Source: a virus (taxonomy: Duplodnaviria; Caudoviricetes). Taken from it: a DNA stretch of 64,000 bases. Below, in pieces: positions 28,501 through 38,995 of this stretch; position 1 is the stretch's first letter; every line of letters begins with the position of its first letter. The notes below the pieces were generated by a model that did not search any database, was not told where the DNA came from, and was given only the letters and a program-made list of their open reading frames with translations. The stretch is taken from positions 189,297 to 253,296 of IMG/VR virus record IMGVR_UViG_3300021256_000002; one strand, written 5' to 3'. A program made the position numbers and the translations under genes.

Positions 28501-30925
28501 TTAGATAGTGCAGAAATTGTACAGGCTAATTGTTTCGTCTTTGATGAAACCGAAATCTGAATTAATTAAACCATTATTATGGTCAATCATAAAGCCTGTT
28601 CTTGGGAAGAAGACTTCCTTAAATGCACGTTTAAACTCAGTTGTAATTTCCTTGGTGATATTCAAAGTATCTCCATCAACAGTATCTTCACATAGAGTCG
28701 TTACTTCTATGCAGTTCTCTTATGAACTTCTCCATGTCACCATGGAAGTTGAGACTATATCTTTCTTCCTATATAGGAAGTACCCCATTTCGATTTAAGG
28801 GATTCTCACCCACTCACTTGAGCCCTACTCCTGTAGCCGATTCTAACGGCACCATTTGGATAGTCGTTGAACGTTCCTATTTTCATAAGCTTCGCTGCTG
28901 ATTGTCTCATTTGAGAGTTTCCAGCAATTAAAGGTTTGGTGAATCATAGATTACTCTATGAAACGACCTAATTTAAGTCAGCATTCAGAGATTGTAAACA
29001 CTGAATAGGTAAACTACAACTAAGGTCAGAATAATCATCCTTAACTGAGGCCACGTTCATAGCTAAATATGACCCCATATTGATTGTTGGATTCCGATTG
29101 AGTAAAATCGACGAGTCGAGTTTTTCATGCGTAAGGATATACTGCATGATGCTATATACCTTAGTATCAAATTCTCGATACGCATAATACCATCTCTCAT
29201 ATGCTTGTGAGTATGAATAACCTTCTAATTTAACCAGAAGGTTAACGATATCAGGCTTCCACAACTCACAGAACGCTACATCCTTTATATTCACATAGAT
29301 TCGTTACTTCTATGCCGTTCTCTTATGAACTGCTACATGTCTCCATGTAGAGTAGACTATATCACCAACTCATATAGAGTTGCTCTCTATTTCGAGTTCA
29401 CTTGAACCCTACTCCCATAAAGGGATAGTCGTTGAACATTCCTCCGTAGAGGCTTCGCTGCTGATTGTCTCATATGAGAGTTCCCAGCAATTAAGAGAGT
29501 TTTACATATTATATCACTATAATACGCCGCTAATAACTAACGGTAAGCGTACTTCATATGAACGCAATGACGCATCCGGTACAATAACGCATCTAGCTGC
29601 ATTGTTAATACGACCACCTAAAATCGATCTCCTTATACCTTACATTCACATAGAGTCGTTACTTCTATGCAGTTCTCTTATGAACTTCTGCATGTCATCA
29701 TGCAGAGTAGACTATATCTTCATCCTATTCGATATGAATAGGAGGCTGCTGTTTCGATTTAAGGGGTTTTCACCCGCTCACTTGAGCCCTACTCCTGTTG
29801 ACGAATTTCACGTCCTAAGGGATAGTCGTTGAACGTTCTCTCTTACGAGAGCTTCGCTGCTGATTGTCTCGTTTTGTGATAGCTTGTATCCACGAGATTT
29901 CCCAGCAATTAAGCAACTTTTCCTATACAATTACTCGTATAGGGACCTATAAAGTTAAGCCCTTCGTTTTCATGAATAGACGTAAATACAGAATCGAATA
30001 CCTGGTTAAGATTATTCTGTGCTCTAAAGAGCGTATTGTTAAGTTTTGCAATATTACTGGTTTTGATTTCATGCTCATCATTGATACGACAAACGTTACC
30101 ATATAAGGCGTTGTAACATCTATCTACTTTTCTATATGAGAATTTCTCATTAGAGAAGAATACTTCACGTAATACTGCGGAATAAACCGGAATTTTAGTT
30201 ACGAAGATTTTATTCTTATTCTCCATGATGAGGTCATATTGTGCCTTGCGGTTTTTCTTCTTCCGGTAGAAGAAATCCATAATCTCATCAAATCTTTCGT
30301 GGAATTCTATCATACCAATTCCGGCGAAAGGATTCTTGTTAAGGTCTACATCAGTCGTTCCTCCATAGAAACCATCAAGTTTCATATCTTTATCAAATCC
30401 AATGATTTGAGACAGAATAGAGGTTTTATTTGCTTTACCAAAGAACACATCAAGTTCTTTATAGAGTAATGGTTGAATGATAGAGAATCTTGCATCGTTA
30501 ATCACTATATAAGCAAAGAGCTTGAGGTTCACATCTACGAACTCAACCTTTGTCCCGCAATCAGGGCATCTACGACCTTTGAAAATCTTACCAATCATCT
30601 TACCACAATCGCATGAATATCTGTCGGCGAATGCGTTATCATCGAGCCAATCGGTGCCAAACAACGGAGAATGGATACCATACATTTCTTTAGTTCCTTT
30701 AGCCGATGGTTCAGAACTCTTATCGTTCTTAGGATTCTTCTTAAACGGTTTTGCTCTTACGATGAAACCGAATTTACGTTTCATATCGTTCTCAAAGTCA
30801 GCTTCCCAATCACGAATAACTGGCATAGGACCAATCGTCTCTGCATTGTACAGCTCAGGAACCAATTGCTGTGCAAGTTCGAGTTCTTTCGGCGTTAAGT
30901 TATAATCGATACCTATATTCTTCAC
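28501..30925 (-). CDS. rpoC: Multisubunit RNA polymerase beta-prime N-terminal subunit, four exons (30925-29958, 29637-29540, 29281-28976, 28679-28501; 516 aa spliced)
   Basis: Zn finger CDCG...CPDC. Splicing restores EGLIRRSILGGRINNAARCVIVP, RLPYVAF, NRNPTI and the catalytic NADFDGD. Frame is preserved at all three junctions. Confidence 0.93.
28680..28975 (-). mobile_element. Group I intron 3 of the beta-prime gene (296 nt, no ORF), inside the NADFDGD codons
   Basis: Exon ends GAC-T, intron ends in G, next exon starts TT-GAT-GGA-GAT. Core AATTGCTGGAAAC, AATCAGCAG, TTCAACGACTA, GATATAGTCT. Confidence 0.93.
29282..29539 (-). mobile_element. Group I intron 2 of the beta-prime gene (258 nt, no ORF)
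   Basis: Exon ends CCG-T (pairs with IGS GCGG), terminal G, restores TAT (Tyr); same core motifs. Confidence 0.92.
29638..29957 (-). mobile_element. Group I intron 1 of the beta-prime gene (320 nt, no ORF)
   Basis: Exon ends GGG-CT (IGS GGTCCCT); P10 CTTTATA pairs with the 3' exon TATAAGG; terminal G; same core. Confidence 0.92.
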
Positions 30926-30944
30926 GTTGATATACCTTCCTTTC

Positions 30945-31208
30945 TTATCTGCTAATCAGACTCATGATATACCTCGCATAATTCTCTGGAGTATGTTCAT
31001 CTGATGAGTCAAGATAGCTAAGATCATCTGGACAAACCGTGTCCGAGTATGAAATTGTAATTTTGCTTTCATCTCCTTTCTTAATGCTAAAAACCCGATA
31101 CAATTGTAATGCGCCGGGTTCACCATCTTCCACACAAGCTTTAAATTCAGGGTATGATTTATTAATCACATTAGCTGTCTTGTGTAAGAAGTCTACTAAA
31201 CTTAACAT
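30945..31208 (-). CDS. Hypothetical protein upstream of the beta-prime gene
   Basis: GAGGTG RBS, early promoter at ~31235. Confidence 0.75.
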   Translation of the reverse strand: MLSLVDFLHKTANVINKSYPEFKACVEDGEPGALQLYRVFSIKKGDESKITISYSDTVCPDDLSYLDSSDEHTPENYARYIMSLISR

Positions 31209-31358
31209 TTTTACTTCACCTCGGATTAATAATATATAATTGAATTGTAGGTTAAAAAATTGGGATTCATTGAACTATTCAGGAAATCCAAAACTCTAAA
31301 ATCTCAAATATATATTATATAGGTAGCCGAATAAGAAATACGCATATCTTGAAAGGAT

Positions 31359-31811
31359 GTGATTATTATGCGTATTAACGACATCGACAAACTGCCGAGC
31401 AATCCCAAAGGGGTTGCTATGTTTCTAGCCCTTTACGGGGGCGAAGAGATTACCATTCAGGTTCGTGAGAACCTGATGGTTCTTATCCCGGTGGATGATG
31501 ACCACTGGGATGTCGAGTTCAACGGTGAGTACTTAGGTACACAGGCCGTTGAGCAAGTCGCAAGTGGTATCTGCCAGTTCAAGCGGCAAGTCACCGCCGC
31601 AAACCGGTATCGGGCTTTCCAGCACGCTACCGCACAGCCAACCTGGCAACAGTCGGCTCCGCCACAAGGTGGTTATCCTCGTCTACCGCTCCAGCCGCAG
31701 AGTGGATATTCTCTGCCCCGCCGCACCACCACACCGGAACCTGATATCATTGATATTGGGTCCAGGTTGATTGGGTCGGTCTTCGGCGGCATCCGTCGCG
31801 GATTGTACTGA
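31359..31811 (+). CDS. Early hypothetical protein with P/Q-rich tail (monocistronic cassette)
   Basis: Promoter at 31308; likely start ATG 31368 behind GAAAGGATG; GC-rich; terminator at ~31815-31870. Confidence 0.8.
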   Translation: MIIMRINDIDKLPSNPKGVAMFLALYGGEEITIQVRENLMVLIPVDDDHWDVEFNGEYLGTQAVEQVASGICQFKRQVTAANRYRAFQHATAQPTWQQSAPPQGGYPRLPLQPQSGYSLPRRTTTPEPDIIDIGSRLIGSVFGGIRRGLY

Positions 31812-31925
31812 TTAGAGGAAGGAAGTTGGAGGGCACGGCCGATTCTCCAACTTCTTTCTTTTCTTCTTTTTGTATGAATCATCACAATTTTATAATGATT
31901 AATCGAAAATAAGGGGTGTAAAACT

Positions 31926-32951
31926 ATGTTCCATAATACAACTAAAATTTGGGAAGGTATTAAGAATGTTAAAATTCTTACTATCAATGATTTAGACCAT
32001 CAAGTAGCTCTGGCGTATGCATGTCAAGGGATACGTGAAATAGATAGCGACATTACTATCGAAATCATTGATTGCACATGCAAAGCGGTAGTCCCTCCCA
32101 TAGTAGAAAACCCTGTTGATGATACAATGATTTTATTTTTAGGATACGTTCCTAACATGATGTATTTACACAACGTGATTTGTATGGTAAAGGATTACCA
32201 TGTGATATATATCGATAATGATATAATCCGTTTACAGAATCTTCGTAATCTGGAATGTGCTAAGAATATCAACGGGTTGATTATTCCTAACTTCAGTATA
32301 GGTGTATTGACGTATATGTACTTCAAATACAATATGAGATACGCTACATATGAATGGTCAACTCAAGTATTCTGTAAGGCGTACAATTATCCGTTGGAAT
32401 TAACCAACCCTGTTGAAGCTGCAAAAGTTTTGAATTTGGTAGATAGACCGGTTACAGACATTTCGATGTATACGTTATATCCAAAGGAACTGAAGTTTGC
32501 TGAATTCCGTAGATGTTGTGTATATCAAAATATCCTTGATTCCAATTTGGAAGATTTGAATGATCCTGGTATAATCAGTACTCTTAATGATTATATTGAT
32601 GCAGAGACTCTTGATACAGCAGCTGAATCTACTGATGTAGCGAACAAGCGTATCATGAATAACGCATATAAAGGTGTTCTTCGTAAATGTGAACATCTGA
32701 AAGTAATTGCTATCAATACACCAGAAGGAACTGGAATGACTTTCATAAACGGTAAAGTATGGGATAAATTCCATCTTGGTATATCATTCCACTTTGACGG
32801 CAATATGTGGTACAAAGTATGGAGACTGGGTCTTGAACCTGAAAAGAAAATCAACTGCGCAAAGATTGCTGAATCTTATGGTGGTCATGGCAGAGAATCT
32901 TATGGCGAATTCAGAACATCCGGTCAATTAGAAGTTTTAGCGATTAACTGA
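31926..32951 (+). CDS. Degenerate DHH/DHHA1-like phosphoesterase
   Basis: NDLD near the N-terminus, YIDND where IDHH is expected, C-terminal IAESYGGHG. Confidence 0.55.
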   Translation: MFHNTTKIWEGIKNVKILTINDLDHQVALAYACQGIREIDSDITIEIIDCTCKAVVPPIVENPVDDTMILFLGYVPNMMYLHNVICMVKDYHVIYIDNDIIRLQNLRNLECAKNINGLIIPNFSIGVLTYMYFKYNMRYATYEWSTQVFCKAYNYPLELTNPVEAAKVLNLVDRPVTDISMYTLYPKELKFAEFRRCCVYQNILDSNLEDLNDPGIISTLNDYIDAETLDTAAESTDVANKRIMNNAYKGVLRKCEHLKVIAINTPEGTGMTFINGKVWDKFHLGISFHFDGNMWYKVWRLGLEPEKKINCAKIAESYGGHGRESYGEFRTSGQLEVLAIN

Positions 32952-32955
32952 CTAG

Positions 32956-32991
32956 AATCCCACATGAGGAATTACCTCATGTGGGATTTTT
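32956..32991. terminator. Terminator between convergent genes
   Basis: AATCCCACATGAGG/CCTCATGTGGGATT stem. Confidence 0.8.
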
Positions 32992-32994
32992 ATG

Positions 32995-33351
32995 TTAACG
33001 CTTAGCTATAACGATAGTCACCGTATTACCATCTGTTTTGGTAATTTCAGCTGAATATTCATCATGATTCCAAGCACAACTTGATTGACACTTCAAAAGA
33101 TGAATCAAGTCATCACCAAATTCAACATTCGTAGTCAGGATGAAAGAAAGAGTATCACTCAAAAGACACTCAACATCATCTATTTTTTTGATGATTTCAT
33201 CAGCCGCTATGATATTATAGGCATAAGCGAATTTCAAATAATGATTTGTTATCAAGTCTTCGAAATACGCAAGATCATTCAGATGCTTATCAAGAGTTTT
33301 GTTGAAGACTTGGATTCGATTTTTTTCCATACCAATCATCCTCGTGTCCAA
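32995..33351 (-). CDS. Hypothetical protein
   Basis: 118-aa ORF in operon orientation. Confidence 0.7.
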   Translation of the reverse strand: MDTRMIGMEKNRIQVFNKTLDKHLNDLAYFEDLITNHYLKFAYAYNIIAADEIIKKIDDVECLLSDTLSFILTTNVEFGDDLIHLLKCQSSCAWNHDEYSAEITKTDGNTVTIVIAKR

Positions 33352-33354
33352 CGT

Positions 33355-33620
33355 CTACCTTTTACTTATTCGATTTCTAATCTCGTTCATTTCACGTTCA
33401 CGAGCTTCTTTCTCTCTCAAACGTTTTTCTTCTTCAGCTTCTTTGAGTTTTCGTTGTATACGAATATCTCTCCGTTGAATTAGTTCTTTGAGACTCATTG
33501 ATTCAAGTACATGAATATCACCAAGTTCACCTTTGAACATTTCAGCGGTTTCATCAATCAGCTGCCAATAACGAGTTATTCGATCGTTGTCTGAGTTCGG
33601 CGTTGGACTCGCTGAAAAAG
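33355..33620 (-). CDS. Small ORF probably reached by -1 frameshift from the upstream gene (chaperone extension)
   Basis: Frame is open back to CTTTTTC (33620-33614); no RBS before ATG 33540; reads YWQLIDETAEMFKGELGDIHVLESMSLKEL. Confidence 0.55.
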
Positions 33621-35144
33621 CAATCTATCCAGATTCATGCTGTATGCACCATGGTGATGTCCGCAATTCGTACATACAACGTCATCAAGACCGTAAGTAA
33701 CTGTATACGGACGGAGCATACGAGTAATCATAGTTTCGATGGTTGCCAGCTGTTCATCATTGAAAGTCTTCATGAATTCAACAATGTCTTCCAGAGTGTC
33801 GATTTCATCATACTCGAGATCATCGAAGTTATCTACCTCATCCAGATTTACCGGAACCAGAATACGACGAATGTTATGAGCAAATACAACCATACGAGTA
33901 TCAGCACCGTTTATCATTTCCGGAGTGATACGCGGCAGGATGTTTTCAACCTGCTCCTTGACACTCGGCACATAGATATCTACAAGGATTGCACTGATAT
34001 CATCCGTACGGAAACGTACCAACGAAGAAACAACAGAGTTGTCAATCATGTACTTGTAGTTATCTTCCTTGCTGTGATACATACTGCGTTCGAACAAGTC
34101 GTTCATTACCGCAACACGTTCAGGCGGAACATCGGTTGTACGAAGAAGAGCCCGATTGTTGTACTTGACCGTAAAGTCTTTCTGACAGTTCGGACGAGTA
34201 CATGTAAAAGTTACGCTATCTTCTTCAGGATAAGAGTTACACAGAATCGTGTAGATAAAGTTATTGTAATCGGCATATGCCGTATGAGAAATGAAATCAT
34301 CAAACGTCTTGAAATCACCTACAGAGCAATCAGTCAGTTTGCTGTAAATCAAAGACCATTTCTCAAGCAGACTAGCCGTGCTTTCATTCTGCGTCGGGCG
34401 CTGAATGAGCTGAAGAGATTCAGAAGACGACACATTCATCATCTTACCAGTATACAGTGAAGCCAATGCCATCACCGGTGCATAAGAACGGTTATAAGAC
34501 CGCTTGGTGTACGTCGTCTTTTTAGTTTTATCATCCTTCTTACGGATTTTTACCGTATGAAGTTTCTTGTCTTCCACCTCAACGAGATGGATTTTCTTAG
34601 CCGCGTCGATACGTTTCTGCTCTTCTTCAGTGAAGTTCATCTGGCCCATACCGACCTTATCAATCAGAATGGTTACTTCATTTGCAAGGTCAGCGTTACG
34701 AGCTTCCTTCACTTCATCACTAGCATCTTCGCTATCAACTTCCTCAGGTTTCAAACCTTTTTCCTTAGCATATTTGATGCGGGCTTCTTCCATATTTTTC
34801 AAAATATGGGCAGGAAGCGGAAGAGTCTGACCATTACCAACATCCAAGAAGCGACGCTGTGCTTCGGGCAGATTCTCACGTGCAGCCTGAATCATTTCAT
34901 CCATTTCACGGAGTTCATCTTTAACCGCATTCATCGTACCATTGGTCATACCAGGTGCAATAGCACGATTAGGGTCGTTATTCGGAGTCGGTTTTTCAAC
35001 AACCACTCCTTTTCCAGTATACTCCTTATGAGGTTCTTCCGACTTACTCGGAACTACTTCAGCTTCGATGAAATCATCATCGTCGCCGAGAGTCGGCTCA
35101 GTAATGGGAGTAGCCTGATTTTTAAGTTTAGTTAAATCTTCCAT
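33576..35144 (-). CDS. Baseplate hub/tail assembly chaperone-like protein (T4 gp26-like C-terminal half)
   Basis: CTRPNC and CTNCGH Zn-binding pairs; adjacent to a gp25-like gene in a late operon. Confidence 0.6.
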   Translation of the reverse strand: MEDLTKLKNQATPITEPTLGDDDDFIEAEVVPSKSEEPHKEYTGKGVVVEKPTPNNDPNRAIAPGMTNGTMNAVKDELREMDEMIQAARENLPEAQRRFLDVGNGQTLPLPAHILKNMEEARIKYAKEKGLKPEEVDSEDASDEVKEARNADLANEVTILIDKVGMGQMNFTEEEQKRIDAAKKIHLVEVEDKKLHTVKIRKKDDKTKKTTYTKRSYNRSYAPVMALASLYTGKMMNVSSSESLQLIQRPTQNESTASLLEKWSLIYSKLTDCSVGDFKTFDDFISHTAYADYNNFIYTILCNSYPEEDSVTFTCTRPNCQKDFTVKYNNRALLRTTDVPPERVAVMNDLFERSMYHSKEDNYKYMIDNSVVSSLVRFRTDDISAILVDIYVPSVKEQVENILPRITPEMINGADTRMVVFAHNIRRILVPVNLDEVDNFDDLEYDEIDTLEDIVEFMKTFNDEQLATIETMITRMLRPYTVTYGLDDVVCTNCGHHHGAYSMNLDRLLFQRVQRRTQTTIE

Positions 35145-35171
35145 AAGATAAGTCTTCCTTTCGTCTTAAAA

Positions 35172-35636
35172 TTATTGACCGCCATGAATTAATGCAGGTC
35201 TTGTTACAGATATATTGGAAGATACCAAAGACTTATTTACTTGGGCGTATGCATGGTCTATCTCTCTAACAATATCTGAGAGGCAAACGATGTCAATATA
35301 AAGTACCCACATTCCACCATAATTAAGAGTGGAGATCTTGATATCCTCAATAGCTAATTGTGGTATGTATCGTTGATGTTGATCACGAATAATTTCTTTA
35401 AGTTCACCACCAGCTAACATATCAAGGTCATTGAACCTGTAACTATCAATAGATATTCCCATATCAGGGTCACTAGGAAAAGTCCCTTTTCTCATTAGCA
35501 TAAGTCGTTTACTCAAATTACCGTATGCTTCAGCATCATACAATACTTTCTGTTGTCTAAAATCGTTTAATTCAAAACTCAGTTCACCAATGAGGTGTTC
35601 TGATTCTGCAGGGATAATCCTTCCTTGCCTAAACAT
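35172..35636 (-). CDS. Baseplate wedge gp25-like protein
   Basis: LMRKGTFPSDPDMGISI...RYIP; start ATG 35636 behind GAGGTGG; TACA-N6-TAA at 35668-35656. Confidence 0.7.
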   Translation of the reverse strand: MFRQGRIIPAESEHLIGELSFELNDFRQQKVLYDAEAYGNLSKRLMLMRKGTFPSDPDMGISIDSYRFNDLDMLAGGELKEIIRDQHQRYIPQLAIEDIKISTLNYGGMWVLYIDIVCLSDIVREIDHAYAQVNKSLVSSNISVTRPALIHGGQ

Positions 35637-35751
35637 GATTAACCACCTCAATTCATTACTGAAATGTAACAAAAAGAAAAACATAATACTTTCTTATAAT
35701 AAAAGAAAACCCTAACGGAACTACATAAATTCCGTTAGGGTTTTTAACCTT

Positions 35752-38700
35752 TTAAATCATGATATCCGATTCGTCAACAATCTTTTCGATGTGTAAACAA
35801 CCATCATGATAGTTGTTCTTCATCTTGAAAGAACATGCGTCTTTCATCAATTGATACTTCGCATCGTAGTAATTAATGGCATCTTTGCCACCAATCCATA
35901 TCACCAACGTACCTTCCTTTTCCGCTTCATTACAGAGTTCCTCCGCAATAGTATATTCTCTATTCTGAGGTTCTGGTGTACTATCAAAGTACAATCCATC
36001 TGTCTTAGCGAATGGGACGACTGCGCCCGAGAGGCCTGGCGAGGATGATGAATACGTATTAATATCCAGATTGCCAATAAACGATGGATGAACACCACGT
36101 CATTATCTTCATATAGGGTCGTTAATCCTATACCGTTCTCTTATGAACTGCTGCATGTCACCATGCAGATGAGACTATATCTTCATCCTTGATAATTATC
36201 AAGGAGCCTCCTGTTTCGATTTAAGGGGTTCTCACCCACTCACTTGAGCCCTACTCCTATTGACGAGTTTCACGTCCAAGGGATAGTCGTTGAACTTTTA
36301 ATTCATAATAATCCGCGCTTTTTTAAACTCTTTTTTCTTAAATAGACCAAGCTTCGCCATTGTTGTGATGTGAAATTTGGTATATCTATAAGTTTACGGA
36401 TTTTCTTAGTTTTTAATCCTTTTAAAATTAATGCGTCGACTTGCTCATGGTATTTGGTATAATCTGGTCTAGAATAAACGTTTGGAAACTCGATATCTTT
36501 AGTAAATTCTTTCCAAATATGTTTATTTTTTATATCTGATAATTCAGATGATGATAAGTTAGTCTTTTTGGTAATTTTAGAATAAGGTTCATTCTTAAGA
36601 AGCATTTTAATTGCTTTTTTGACCTGTTTTTCGGTATGAGTTGTTGCATGATGTGATATACCATGTGGTAGATTAATCAAATTGTTACGATAAGCTCGTT
36701 GAACGTTAGTTTGATTACTTACCCATTCTAAATTAGATGGTACATTATTAGATTTATTCCCATCGATATGATCTACTTGTGGTAAATTATCAGGGTTAGG
36801 AACAAATGCATCAGCTACCAGCCTATGAACTTTTTTCTTTTTACCTCTAAGACTTGCGTTAAGATATAACTCTCTAGGCTCTCCTGACTTAGGAAGCCTG
36901 CCGGTTTTCTGTAACTTTAATTTTTTACCAGTTATACGATTAATAACTTCACCTCTACTAGAAACAGAGTACATGTCATCAATCGCTTTCCAAATTTCAA
37001 TAGTTTCCATATATTTCCTTTCTAGGATTATTATGAATTATTTAGCTGCTGATTGTCTCATATGAGAGTTCCCAGCAATTAAAGAGGGTACAATATATGA
37101 TTACTCATATACGGACCAGTTATGTTTAGCCGTATATTGACATTGTGACTCGATTTACTTCCGATCGAATTCGGCAAGGATCTTCGTATAAGTTCGTTAA
37201 GCTTATACCGTTCTCTTATGAACTGCTCTATATCACTATAGAAGTTGAGACTATATCTTTCTTCCCATAGGGAAGTTACCCATTTCGATTTAAGGGATTC
37301 TCACCCACCACTTGGCCCTACTCCTGTAGCAGACTTTCACTGCGTCAATTGGATAGTCGTTGAACGTTCTCTCATATGAGAGCTTCGCTGCTGATTGTCT
37401 CTTTCGAGAGGTTCCAGCAATTAAGGTATTGACGAATATAGGATTACTCCTATAATCAGGCCCTGACAACCTTTAATGGTATACTTTAATGCGCTAAATG
37501 TATCAAGATCATTTACTAAGTCATCGAATCTCATGAGCTGACTGTTCTGCATAGCCTGTATTACGAGGTTTCCAGAGAAGCTGAATATATTCGTTATGAC
37601 TTGATCAATATCAACTTTATTACCAAATGTAAGAATTCGATTTCATTATCTTCATATAAGTTCGTTAGGCTTATACCGTTCTCTTATGAACTGCTATATA
37701 TTGCTATATAGATGAGACTATATCATCATCTCAGAGAGATGGTTTCTATTTTGAACCACTTGGTCCTATTAGTCGTTGAACGTTCCTCCGTAGAGGCTTC
37801 GCTGCTGATTGTCCCAGAGGGAGTTCCCAGCAATTAAGAAACTTTGCTAATACCATCGCTGATATTAGGCGCAAAAATCTACGCTTTCACCGATTCTCAT
37901 TGATAATAAAGATGCGATACATTCGCCCAAACGTAATCGTTTAGTTGACAAATCGAGGTTATTCTTCTGACGTAATTCAGGGAAATTCTGTACCATCCAG
38001 CGGACTATACTGTAGATGGATATCTTATTTACCTGATTGATTTTAAGAACATCCTTTGACGTCAGGTCCAAAAGACGTTCAAAGAAACGCATGGTACTCT
38101 TACCAGAGTCCATCATCTTATCTGTATTCTTAGTATACAAACTACCGAGCTGTCCTAGCCAGTAGTCCTTGGTTACAATGTCTTCAATATGGGTCTTTGG
38201 AGCAAAGCATTCTCCCAACATTCCAACCATCGCTTTGATATAATCAAAGTTATCGAAGAAATGCTTATTGACTACCAATACAACATGCTTATTTGCATTG
38301 AAGTAGTAGTAATCTTTATCTGGTTCATCGGGTAAATCTTCATTAGCAATAACGGAGATTATCCTATCTACCATATAATAGGTAAGAGTCTTTGCAAAAC
38401 CCATCTTACAGAAGTAGAACAGCAGTACAGAGATGCTTCTACGGAATACCTTCATATAGAATACATTGAAGGTATATTCTTTCTCAGAGAATATCTCTTT
38501 GATAGTAGCCTTTCTATAATTTACCGGGATTGGCTGTAACGATTTGAATACCAAACCATCTTTCACTACATAAGTAGATGAATCAACCAACTGGTAGATT
38601 AAGAAGTATCTTTTACCCTTGAGGAAATAATAATTATTCTTATCTCTCTTAGGTAACAAGATAGACCGCTTTACATAACGTACAGCTCCATTTACTTCTA

Positions 38701-38995
38701 CTCGGAAGCGCATTGTAAGTTCAAAGACACGATTGTCTTTGATGAAATGATACTTTTTCTTAGCATCCTTCTTTTTACGTTTCTTCCTTGAAGTGATATA
38801 CTTATAATAGTCAATCTTAGACTCATCATACTCAATGGTATAATCATCAAGTAATTTGACAAATCCAGTAGACTCCAAGTTACGGAACACGTTGAGGACG
38901 TATTCAACAAGCTCCTTGTCGTAAGTACGATCAATGAGCTCATTGTTCAAATTAGCCTCGTAAGGATTACCAAGGTCTTTGATCATATCGATCAT
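35752..38995 (-). CDS. rpoB: Multisubunit RNA polymerase beta N-terminal subunit, four exons (38995-37881, 37643-37469, 37174-37128, 36100-35752; 561 aa spliced)
   Basis: YFLKGKRYFLIYQL, LSTKRLRLGE. Splicing restores ESVNRIL...KYTIKGPNSIG...IRLRGVHPSFIGNLDINTYSSSSPGLSG, matching bacterial beta GPGG...RDVHPTHYG. Frame preserved. Confidence 0.92.
36101..37127 (-). mobile_element. Group I intron C of the beta gene (1027 nt) carrying an HNH homing endonuclease
   Basis: Exon ends CGG-CT (IGS GGTCCGTATA), terminal G. The ORF sits between AATCAGCAGC and GTTCAACGACTA (P6 region). Confidence 0.93.
36303..37010 (-). CDS. Intron-encoded NUMOD4/HNH homing endonuclease
   Basis: EIWKAI..YSVSSRG, VHRLVADAF, VDHIDGNKSNN..NLEW; own AGAAAGGA RBS; AT-richer. 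Confidence 0.93.
   Translation of the reverse strand: METIEIWKAIDDMYSVSSRGEVINRITGKKLKLQKTGRLPKSGEPRELYLNASLRGKKKKVHRLVADAFVPNPDNLPQVDHIDGNKSNNVPSNLEWVSNQTNVQRAYRNNLINLPHGISHHATTHTEKQVKKAIKMLLKNEPYSKITKKTNLSSSELSDIKNKHIWKEFTKDIEFPNVYSRPDYTKYHEQVDALILKGLKTKKIRKLIDIPNFTSQQWRSLVYLRKKSLKKRGLL
37175..37468 (-). mobile_element. Group I intron B of the beta gene (294 nt, no ORF)
   Basis: Exon ends AAA-GGT (IGS GCCT), terminal G, next exon starts CCG-AAT; conserved core. Confidence 0.92.
37644..37880 (-). mobile_element. Group I intron A of the beta gene (237 nt, minimal, no ORF)
   Basis: Exon ends AGC-GT (IGS GCGC); P10 GATTT/AAATC; terminal G; conserved core. Confidence 0.92.

Follow-up and report, generated by a model that had tools for sequence, protein, structure and literature searches.

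Mosaic group I introns with conflicting segment histories in the RNA polymerase genes of an uncultured gut jumbo phage

A 64,000-nucleotide (nt) stretch of DNA, hereafter the window (positions 189,297 to 253,296 of IMG/VR virus record IMGVR_UViG_3300021256_000002), carries six group I introns (Rfam RF00028), all on the minus strand, in two RNA polymerase (RNAP) genes, beta-prime and beta, of an uncultured gut jumbo phage. The phage record is 253,296 bp long with terminal repeats, and its genome contains eight such introns in total, distributed across four genes. We find that these introns are mosaics whose segments have conflicting histories, with a grouping of the ribozyme cores that differs from that of the 3′ domains (P9, P9.1 and P9.2, here called the tail). 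We infer recombination as the cause of this conflict, together with its direction and mechanism, and consider it likely that a single family of paralogous introns has been reshuffled by ectopic recombination, occasionally between neighbours. Positions are those of the window, except for the two introns X1 and X2 that lie outside it, for which we use whole-genome numbering; L-numbers denote sampled loci of other phages.

Conflicting histories of cores and tails

The ribozyme cores of this genome's introns are 70–90% identical, and a tree of the segment from P3 to P7′ groups them across genes. Beta-prime intron 3 (28680–28975, minus strand, 296 nt, interrupting the NADFDGD motif) and beta intron B (37175–37468, minus strand, 294 nt) belong to one four-member subfamily with a core bootstrap of 97, the other members being X1, the seventh intron (genome 37593–37895, plus strand), located in a second RNAP beta-like gene in the region of its conserved RALMG..QRQ motif, and X2, the eighth (genome 26908–27929, minus strand), which has its own HNH open reading frame (ORF) and sits in a protein-kinase-like gene just after DYG, the equivalent of DFG. 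Beta-prime intron 2 (29282–29539, minus strand, 258 nt, after CCGT) groups with beta intron A (37644–37880, minus strand, 237 nt and the most reduced, after GCGT) at 96, and beta-prime intron 1 (29638–29957, minus strand, 320 nt, with a large P5 and P7.1/P7.2) and beta intron C (36101–37127, minus strand, 1027 nt, with an ORF inside P6) are left together. These are the three pairs named in the original prediction on the basis of short plus-strand strings, and we find that the quoted core strings occur exactly twice and the hairpin strings exactly three times in the window, at the introns stated, and that the outer limits of 28680 and 37880 equal those we derived.

The strength of the three pairings varies when identity is measured segment by segment in the alignment. 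Introns 1 and C are 92% identical in P7.1/P7.2 and 72% in P8, share the same guide sequence, and both follow GGCT (CGGCT for intron C); introns 3 and B are 86% identical in P8 and 82% in P7.x. For introns 2 and A, which both follow CGT, the pairing holds in part: both are reduced and their P6 segments are 95% identical, but the similarity is thin elsewhere, with an identity of only 0.55 in P7.x–P8. The same P6 module is also found in introns of a relative at 56% identity, and the P7.x–P8 and P9 segments of intron A have their nearest relatives among the introns of other phages, such that the 2/A pairing depends mainly on P6. A further candidate, the identity of P5 in introns 2 and C as a case of homogenisation within the genome, was dropped, the same P5 form being present in the 56% relative.

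The tails group the introns differently, with a tree that places A and B together at 92 and joins them to C at 98. We note that the tail helices are genuine RNA structure, as folding of 26 tails from several phages with RNAalifold yields three hairpins, P9, P9.1 and P9.2, in which 13 of 18 pairs show compensatory change. The conflict is significant in both directions: the core data reject the tail tree (approximately unbiased test, AU, p<1e-10), and the tail data reject the core tree (Kishino–Hasegawa and Shimodaira–Hasegawa tests, KH and SH, p ~1e-4). A permutation test of the pairwise homoplasy index (PHI) type on site compatibility finds the compatible sites to be spatially clustered (p=2e-4), and, because paired columns are not independent, we repeated it with the 3′ strands of helices dropped (p=0.002–0.004). 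By split counts, no tail site supports any of the core pairs or groups, and no core site supports those of the tail. The mosaic character proposed in the original prediction is borne out by both the conflicting trees and the site-compatibility test. Many intron-to-intron joints present in metagenome contigs were rejected as recombinants; they stem from assembly graphs and from the introns of other phages.

Introns A and B, which lie only 175 nt apart, have tails that are mutually nearest among about 130 compared, a set that includes 88 from the IMG/VR matches listed. As far as the outer P9 pairs, intron B is like intron 3, its sister in the core; from the inner pairs of P9 through P9.2 it is like intron A, and A and B have probably exchanged a tail locally. 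Such exchange between neighbours seems to occur sporadically, since the same picture recurs at three loci of other phages: in L038 (introns 1 and 2), L044 (introns 1 and 2, which also share an identical unusual P9.1) and L087, adjacent introns combine near-identical tails with clearly different cores. In each case the near-identity of the tails starts at the conserved P7′ element or immediately after it. A bolder and rather unlikely extension is that, in phages, adjacent group I introns exchange tails recurrently and in a directed way, triggered for example by intron-encoded HNH nickases, which might cut intron–exon junctions and leave the break to be repaired from the adjacent paralogous intron. 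If true, the four independent adjacent pairs (A/B, L038, L044 and L087) would be footprints of directed tail exchange, and multi-intron phage genes would be natural arenas of ribozyme domain shuffling.

How the mosaics would have arisen can be pictured as follows. The eight introns would be paralogues within a single family of group I introns of IA type, of the kind present in Bacillus phage AR9/PBS1 and Twort-like phages, with the P7.1/P7.2 extension and P9–P9.1–P9.2 tail expected of that type and with a guide that pairs with each intron's own 5′ exon. Stretches of 10–15 nt in P3, P4′/P5′, P7, P7′ and P9.1 are identical in all copies, and these would let the copies recombine, either by ectopic gene conversion or by (double) template switching, so that each intron would end up composed of modules that differ in their nearest relatives. 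The P9–P9.2 tail would be one such exchangeable module, existing in two forms; both are old and are also present in AR9 and in many IMG/VR phages. Proximity would favour exchange, with the tail of A and B swapped locally, and the presence of the second form in intron C would most simply be coincidence or older history rather than uniformity imposed across the gene.

Two tail forms and their distribution among genes

The two forms of the P9.2 hairpin differ by two compensatory pairs, the closing pair being C-G in the first and U-A in the second, and an inner pair A-U in the first and G-C in the second. Within the window they sort three and three, as was originally noted from matches to the hairpin strings. 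All six hairpins are on the minus strand, with the C-G form at 28691–28712 in intron 3, identically at 29649–29670 in intron 1, and as a one-base variant at 29294–29315 in intron 2, and the U-A form in introns A (37655–37678), B (37187–37210) and C (36112–36135). The sorting by gene does not extend beyond the window: X2 has the exact hairpin string of the beta-prime introns (genome 26919) and X1 a version with a single base changed. Five introns of the genome thus have the C-G form and three, all in the beta gene, have the U-A form. The alignment contains no site exclusive to the three beta-prime introns. The beta-prime hairpin is therefore a genome-wide default and not a mark of its gene, given its presence in X1 and X2 in other genes. 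We note that X1 combines the default tail hairpin with a different P9.1, and that its 5′ splice site is an estimate based on the pairing of P1 and on frame.

It was further proposed that tails were homogenised within genes, that is, that after the introns had spread between genes their tails were made uniform in each gene by repeated local gene conversion. We consider this possible but unlikely as a general account. In its favour, tails of the same gene in this genome are more similar to each other than other pairs (identity 0.93 versus 0.81, permutation p=0.012), an excess that is confined to the tail and absent from other segments, and the mutual proximity of the A and B tails and the like-tailed adjacent pairs in three other phages are as expected from local conversion. 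Also, L042 has the U-A closing pair in each of its three sampled beta introns, and a single contig of a strain 96–98% identical to this phage has beta exon 4 seemingly joined to an intron-B-like tail, with unknown letters at the joint. Against it, beyond the default form in X1 and X2, intron 2 is further from introns 1 and 3 than is X2, the distant intron in the kinase gene, and the nearest tails to that of intron C, among the approximately 130, are those of intron 1 and an AR9 intron and not those of A and B. The same-gene effect is not seen in AR9 (p=0.50), where multi-intron genes mix the forms, nor in six genomes pooled (p=0.38); adjacency adds 0.05 to tail identity in the pooled set, with p=0.065. 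The five beta-prime introns of L040 have tails that all differ, and the closest relative sampled for both genes, at 79–85% amino acid (aa) identity (L076 and L033, from the same samples and probably one phage), has the default form in both its beta introns and its beta-prime intron. Complete sorting of the second form into one gene is expected by chance with a probability of 1/16 to 1/8, counting one copy per core family. Homogenisation of tails by gene is at best partial, and amounts to one probable A/B event plus coincidence, the local exchange between A and B being the plausible part of the proposal. A link between the beta gene and the second form across the whole clade, as might be read from L042 and L043, was rejected, being contradicted by L076, L044 and the strain contig.

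A different explanation of the same pattern is that the hairpin form is selected gene by gene, through exon context or a gene-specific factor, with convergent sorting as the outcome. The compensatory pairs that distinguish the forms do imply that the helix is under selection. However, the same genes in close relatives have the other form, a beta-gene intron in a contig of the 96–98% strain has an intron-1-like tail, AR9 genes mix both forms, and no complementarity of the hairpin to the exons was seen, so that we consider this explanation very improbable.

Several observations weigh against reshuffling within a single family, our preferred reading. Tract searches of the GENECONV type gave none that was significant after correction for 28 pairs, the best nominal tracts (p ~0.005) being those for B/A and for 1/3, and the tail is short, with 11 informative sites, many of them in pairs. 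The P7.1/P7.2 deletions of introns 2 and A have different limits, and their P6 is a stable tetraloop hairpin; some shared features, for example those of 2 and A, could be parallel in origin. Tails from outside the genome are nearly as close as those within it (L141 to intron B, and L158 to introns 1 and 3), and, judged from these sequences, the introns may already have been mosaic in part when they arrived in this genome. Finally, the nominally significant same-gene excess has to be absorbed by the part of the reading that appeals to coincidence.

Intron sites, turnover and host genes

Intron boundaries were derived from the U·G pair of P1, the terminal G, and continuity of the reading frame. 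Five of the six window introns exceed the RF00028 gathering cut-off, with scores of 100.5 (intron 1), 91.3 (intron 2), 84.8 (intron 3), 94 (intron A) and 72.9 bits (intron B), a range of 72.9–100.5, and intron C scores in two pieces around its ORF, with 43.5 bits for the 3′ part and 20.4 bits for the 5′ part. The Rfam alignments show an insertion at the P7.1/P7.2 position, between P7 and P3′, that is smaller in introns 2 and A; blastn matches are to Twort-like phage introns, and the introns are tentatively placed in subgroup IA. By inspection, each of the eight introns of the genome is preceded by a U able to form the U·G pair with a complementary guide of 4–5 nt, and the frames of both window genes are open after removal of the predicted introns.

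All six junctions are confirmed by intron-free sequences. Site 1 (ENEG/LIRR, where the slash marks the splice site) is uninterrupted in L033, the 85% relative, and site 2 in L035; at site 3 a DNA contig from sheep gut (run X4), with 96% identity over the stretch, lacks exactly the intron and has the catalytic motif NADFDGD intact, with synonymous changes in the junction codons (window 28671–28975). Sites A, B and C are uninterrupted in L076, the 79% relative, which reads TIKG-PNSIG..NIRL-RGVHPSF without a break across the region of the micro-exon described below.

The exons thus delimited are all on the minus strand. In the beta-prime gene, exon 1 (29958–30925, with a predicted start codon) matches phage phiR1-37 g274 and AR9 gp270 by tblastn, exon 2 (29540–29637, 98 nt) and exon 3 (28976–29281) are in open frame once spliced, and exon 4 with the stop codon (28501–28679) is an open frame. 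In the beta gene, exon 1 (37881–38995) encodes the N-terminal part of a homologue of AR9 gp105 (tblastn, 33.5% identity, E 4e-41), exon 2 (37469–37643) and exon 4 with the stop codon (35752–36100) are open frames that show continuity with L076, and exon 3 (37128–37174), recognised by frame continuity, is a micro-exon of 47 nt between introns B and C. For this micro-exon to be retained correctly, two ribozymes have to fold next to each other and skipping of the exon has to be avoided. The ORF within P6 of intron C (36303–37010, minus strand) encodes a predicted HNH homing endonuclease of 235 aa, with a Pfam HNH_3 match (8.5e-12) and a NUMOD4 match (0.0022) below the curated cut-off.

As originally proposed, different genes contain related cores, and the guide of each fits the exon that it adjoins. 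In most segments the paralogues within this genome are closer than the introns at the same sites in relatives at 51–66% aa identity, so that the case named as refuting the original prediction, a closer match over the full length to same-site introns of distant phages, is not what we observe. Intron 2 is still 0.78–0.90 identical to its same-site orthologue in L033 (85%) in P1–P2 and P7.x–P8, while its P9 has its nearest relatives in this genome; the same-site intron in L042 is 0.90 identical to intron A in P9. The closeness of the paralogues and the match of intron 2 to its L033 orthologue both support a spread within this genome or its lineage. GGCT ends the 5′ exon at three of the eight sites, and intron C and X2 share a 7-nt target (ACGGCT/A) even though the core of X2 belongs to the other subfamily, circumstantial similarities that would fit guide-directed reverse splicing, a pathway that is without direct experimental support (review PMC3984707). 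The HNH ORFs of intron C and X2 are only 28% identical, which argues that the ribozymes were not carried by one endonuclease.

An alternative source for the mosaics is that the introns were gained separately, or as multi-intron alleles, by homing and co-conversion during co-infection, and that the mosaics were built outside this genome; for example, a lineage dominated by the second tail form may have supplied the beta allele. Consistent with this, intron DNA is 72–78% identical to the introns of AR9 and of Staphylococcus and Enterococcus phages even though the host proteins are only 27–34% identical, and all three sampled beta introns of L042 share a closing pair. Moreover, a 15-nt P9.1 motif is present in more than 100 IMG/VR viral contigs of varied size (loci L079–L158 were examined). 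Among the matches listed, almost every copy of the motif precedes a P9.2 hairpin whose loop is of the UA(A/G)CGA type and which ends in a GAA tail, the bases flanking the motif co-vary (A with U, C with G), and outside P9.2 hairpins come within 1–2 mismatches of the window tails. This pattern is the signature of a large intron subfamily that is apparently undescribed. The variation of intron presence between strains and the existence of the HNH ORFs also agree with gain by homing. Opposing it are the position of same-genome introns, rather than same-site introns of relatives, as nearest relatives of most segments, the divergence of the HNH ORFs (28% identity, against 70–90% for the cores), and the lack of an endonuclease in six of the eight introns. 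On balance we regard assembly outside the genome as doubtful, and retain reshuffling within one family as the likely account.

The survey of site occupancy in related phages reveals differences both between strains and between more distant relatives, and intron gain and loss in these RNAP genes is rapid, occurring at the level of strains. The 96–98% identical strain (sheep gut, run X4) lacks intron 3 and has, in a single contig, an apparent extra intron in beta exon 4 near SSSPGL/SG (window ~36024), which is the one with the intron-1-like tail. Introns 1, A, B and C are missing from the 79–85% relative, and a complete relative at about 50% identity has both genes and not a single intron genome-wide; the other relative, rich in introns, is too distant for comparison. 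Conversely, relatives contain introns at sites that are empty in the window, in beta at KISIYS/, LVIQA/, DDLV/ and SSS/P, and in beta-prime at NRNP/ and NRNPTIDF/ (survey loci L041, L076, L042, L044, L033, L035, L038 and L040), and in one relative the beta-prime gene contains five introns or more. Introns of the metagenome relatives were sought within the sampled loci. Neither the micro-exon nor the first part of beta exon 4, used as exact patterns, retrieved any close strain, and DNA of this phage is present in sheep, bovine and other gut metagenome runs.

Metatranscriptome contigs (runs X19 and X20) cover parts of introns 1 (29637–29951), B (37178–37428) and 3 (28683–28840) and leave the neighbouring exons uncovered. 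The ends of these contigs fall 1–3 nt away from where the 3′ splice sites are predicted, which hints weakly at stable excised intron RNA; they span few exon bins, and ligated junctions are neither shown nor excluded by them.

The genes that harbour the window introns are distant homologues of the non-virion RNAP subunits of AR9/PBS1 and phiR1-37, the N-terminal part of beta-prime being 27–30% identical to AR9 gp270 and phiR1-37 g274 by tblastn. Pfam searches with separate exon pieces gave no RNAP match, and the identification therefore rests on tblastn and on intron-free homologues, of which those of beta-prime contain PF00623. Scans of IMG/VR with single proteins found no relatives of either gene, and alignment-based scans recovered relatives. 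At the DNA level, the only blastn matches to known phages in the window are in the introns. Between the two RNAP genes are sizeable ORFs with no intron signal (31926–32951, plus strand, and 33576–35165, minus strand), one of them of 341 aa on the opposite strand.

Relation to known intron systems

A close parallel is with AR9/PBS1 (Takahashivirus), in which split multisubunit RNAP genes contain several introns per gene, some with HNH ORFs, with the same architecture and tail and in both forms. The two systems differ in that the host proteins are only 27–34% identical, gp105 is without an intron, and gp270 has one intron of another type at another site. AR9 has approximately 16 introns of the same architecture; a gene with four of them has two of each form, and in a five-intron gene the forms alternate and the last intron has a third form. 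We also observed that two pairs of AR9 introns (95395/151159 and 96064/118423; L013 and L014), in different genes tens of kb apart, have identical 64-nt P9–P9.2 tails, and that a P6 hairpin is common to three successive introns within a single AR9 gene (p=0.011 for the same-gene excess in P6).

In 1999 Landthaler and Shub reportedly described three similar introns in orf142 of Twort and concluded that they had spread within that genome. As there, related IA-type introns lie in one phage gene with short exons between them, although in the present case the family spans four genes and its segments have conflicting histories. The td, nrdB and sunY introns of T4 reportedly recombine at short conserved core elements to yield chimeric ribozymes (Hall, Liu and Shub in 1989, and Bryk and Belfort in 1990), which is the mechanism that we propose may operate here. 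The T4 events were reportedly selected in the laboratory and deleted the intervening DNA, whereas here the patches are natural and non-deleting, and lie in functional genes. Natural and functional products of exchange between introns are rarely documented in comparison with the laboratory recombinants of T4.

The predicted endonuclease of the intron C ORF, with HNH_3 and NUMOD4 matches and a position in the peripheral loop P6, resembles the HNH intron endonucleases of the I-HmuI and I-BasI type, except that here only two of the eight introns carry an ORF. Group I introns of ribosomal DNA offer a likeness of another kind, in that related introns at different sites share 4–7 nt at the ends of their 5′ exons, which pair with the guide, and this has been taken as circumstantial evidence for reverse splicing (PMC3984707); here the targets are protein-coding phage genes. 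Related cores behind matching exon ends of 4–7 nt bear on how introns reach new sites. Introns are gained and lost very fast in these essential phage RNAP genes. A finding of homogenisation gene by gene would have been less expected, but it holds up poorly. With 8–16 paralogous ribozymes per genome, and modules that are reassorted under the need to splice, this genome, AR9 and several uncultured relatives constitute a natural experiment on ribozyme modularity. The introns described here belong to a known phage family of group I introns and are not unusual in type, and they provide a new and well-resolved case of natural recombination between introns.

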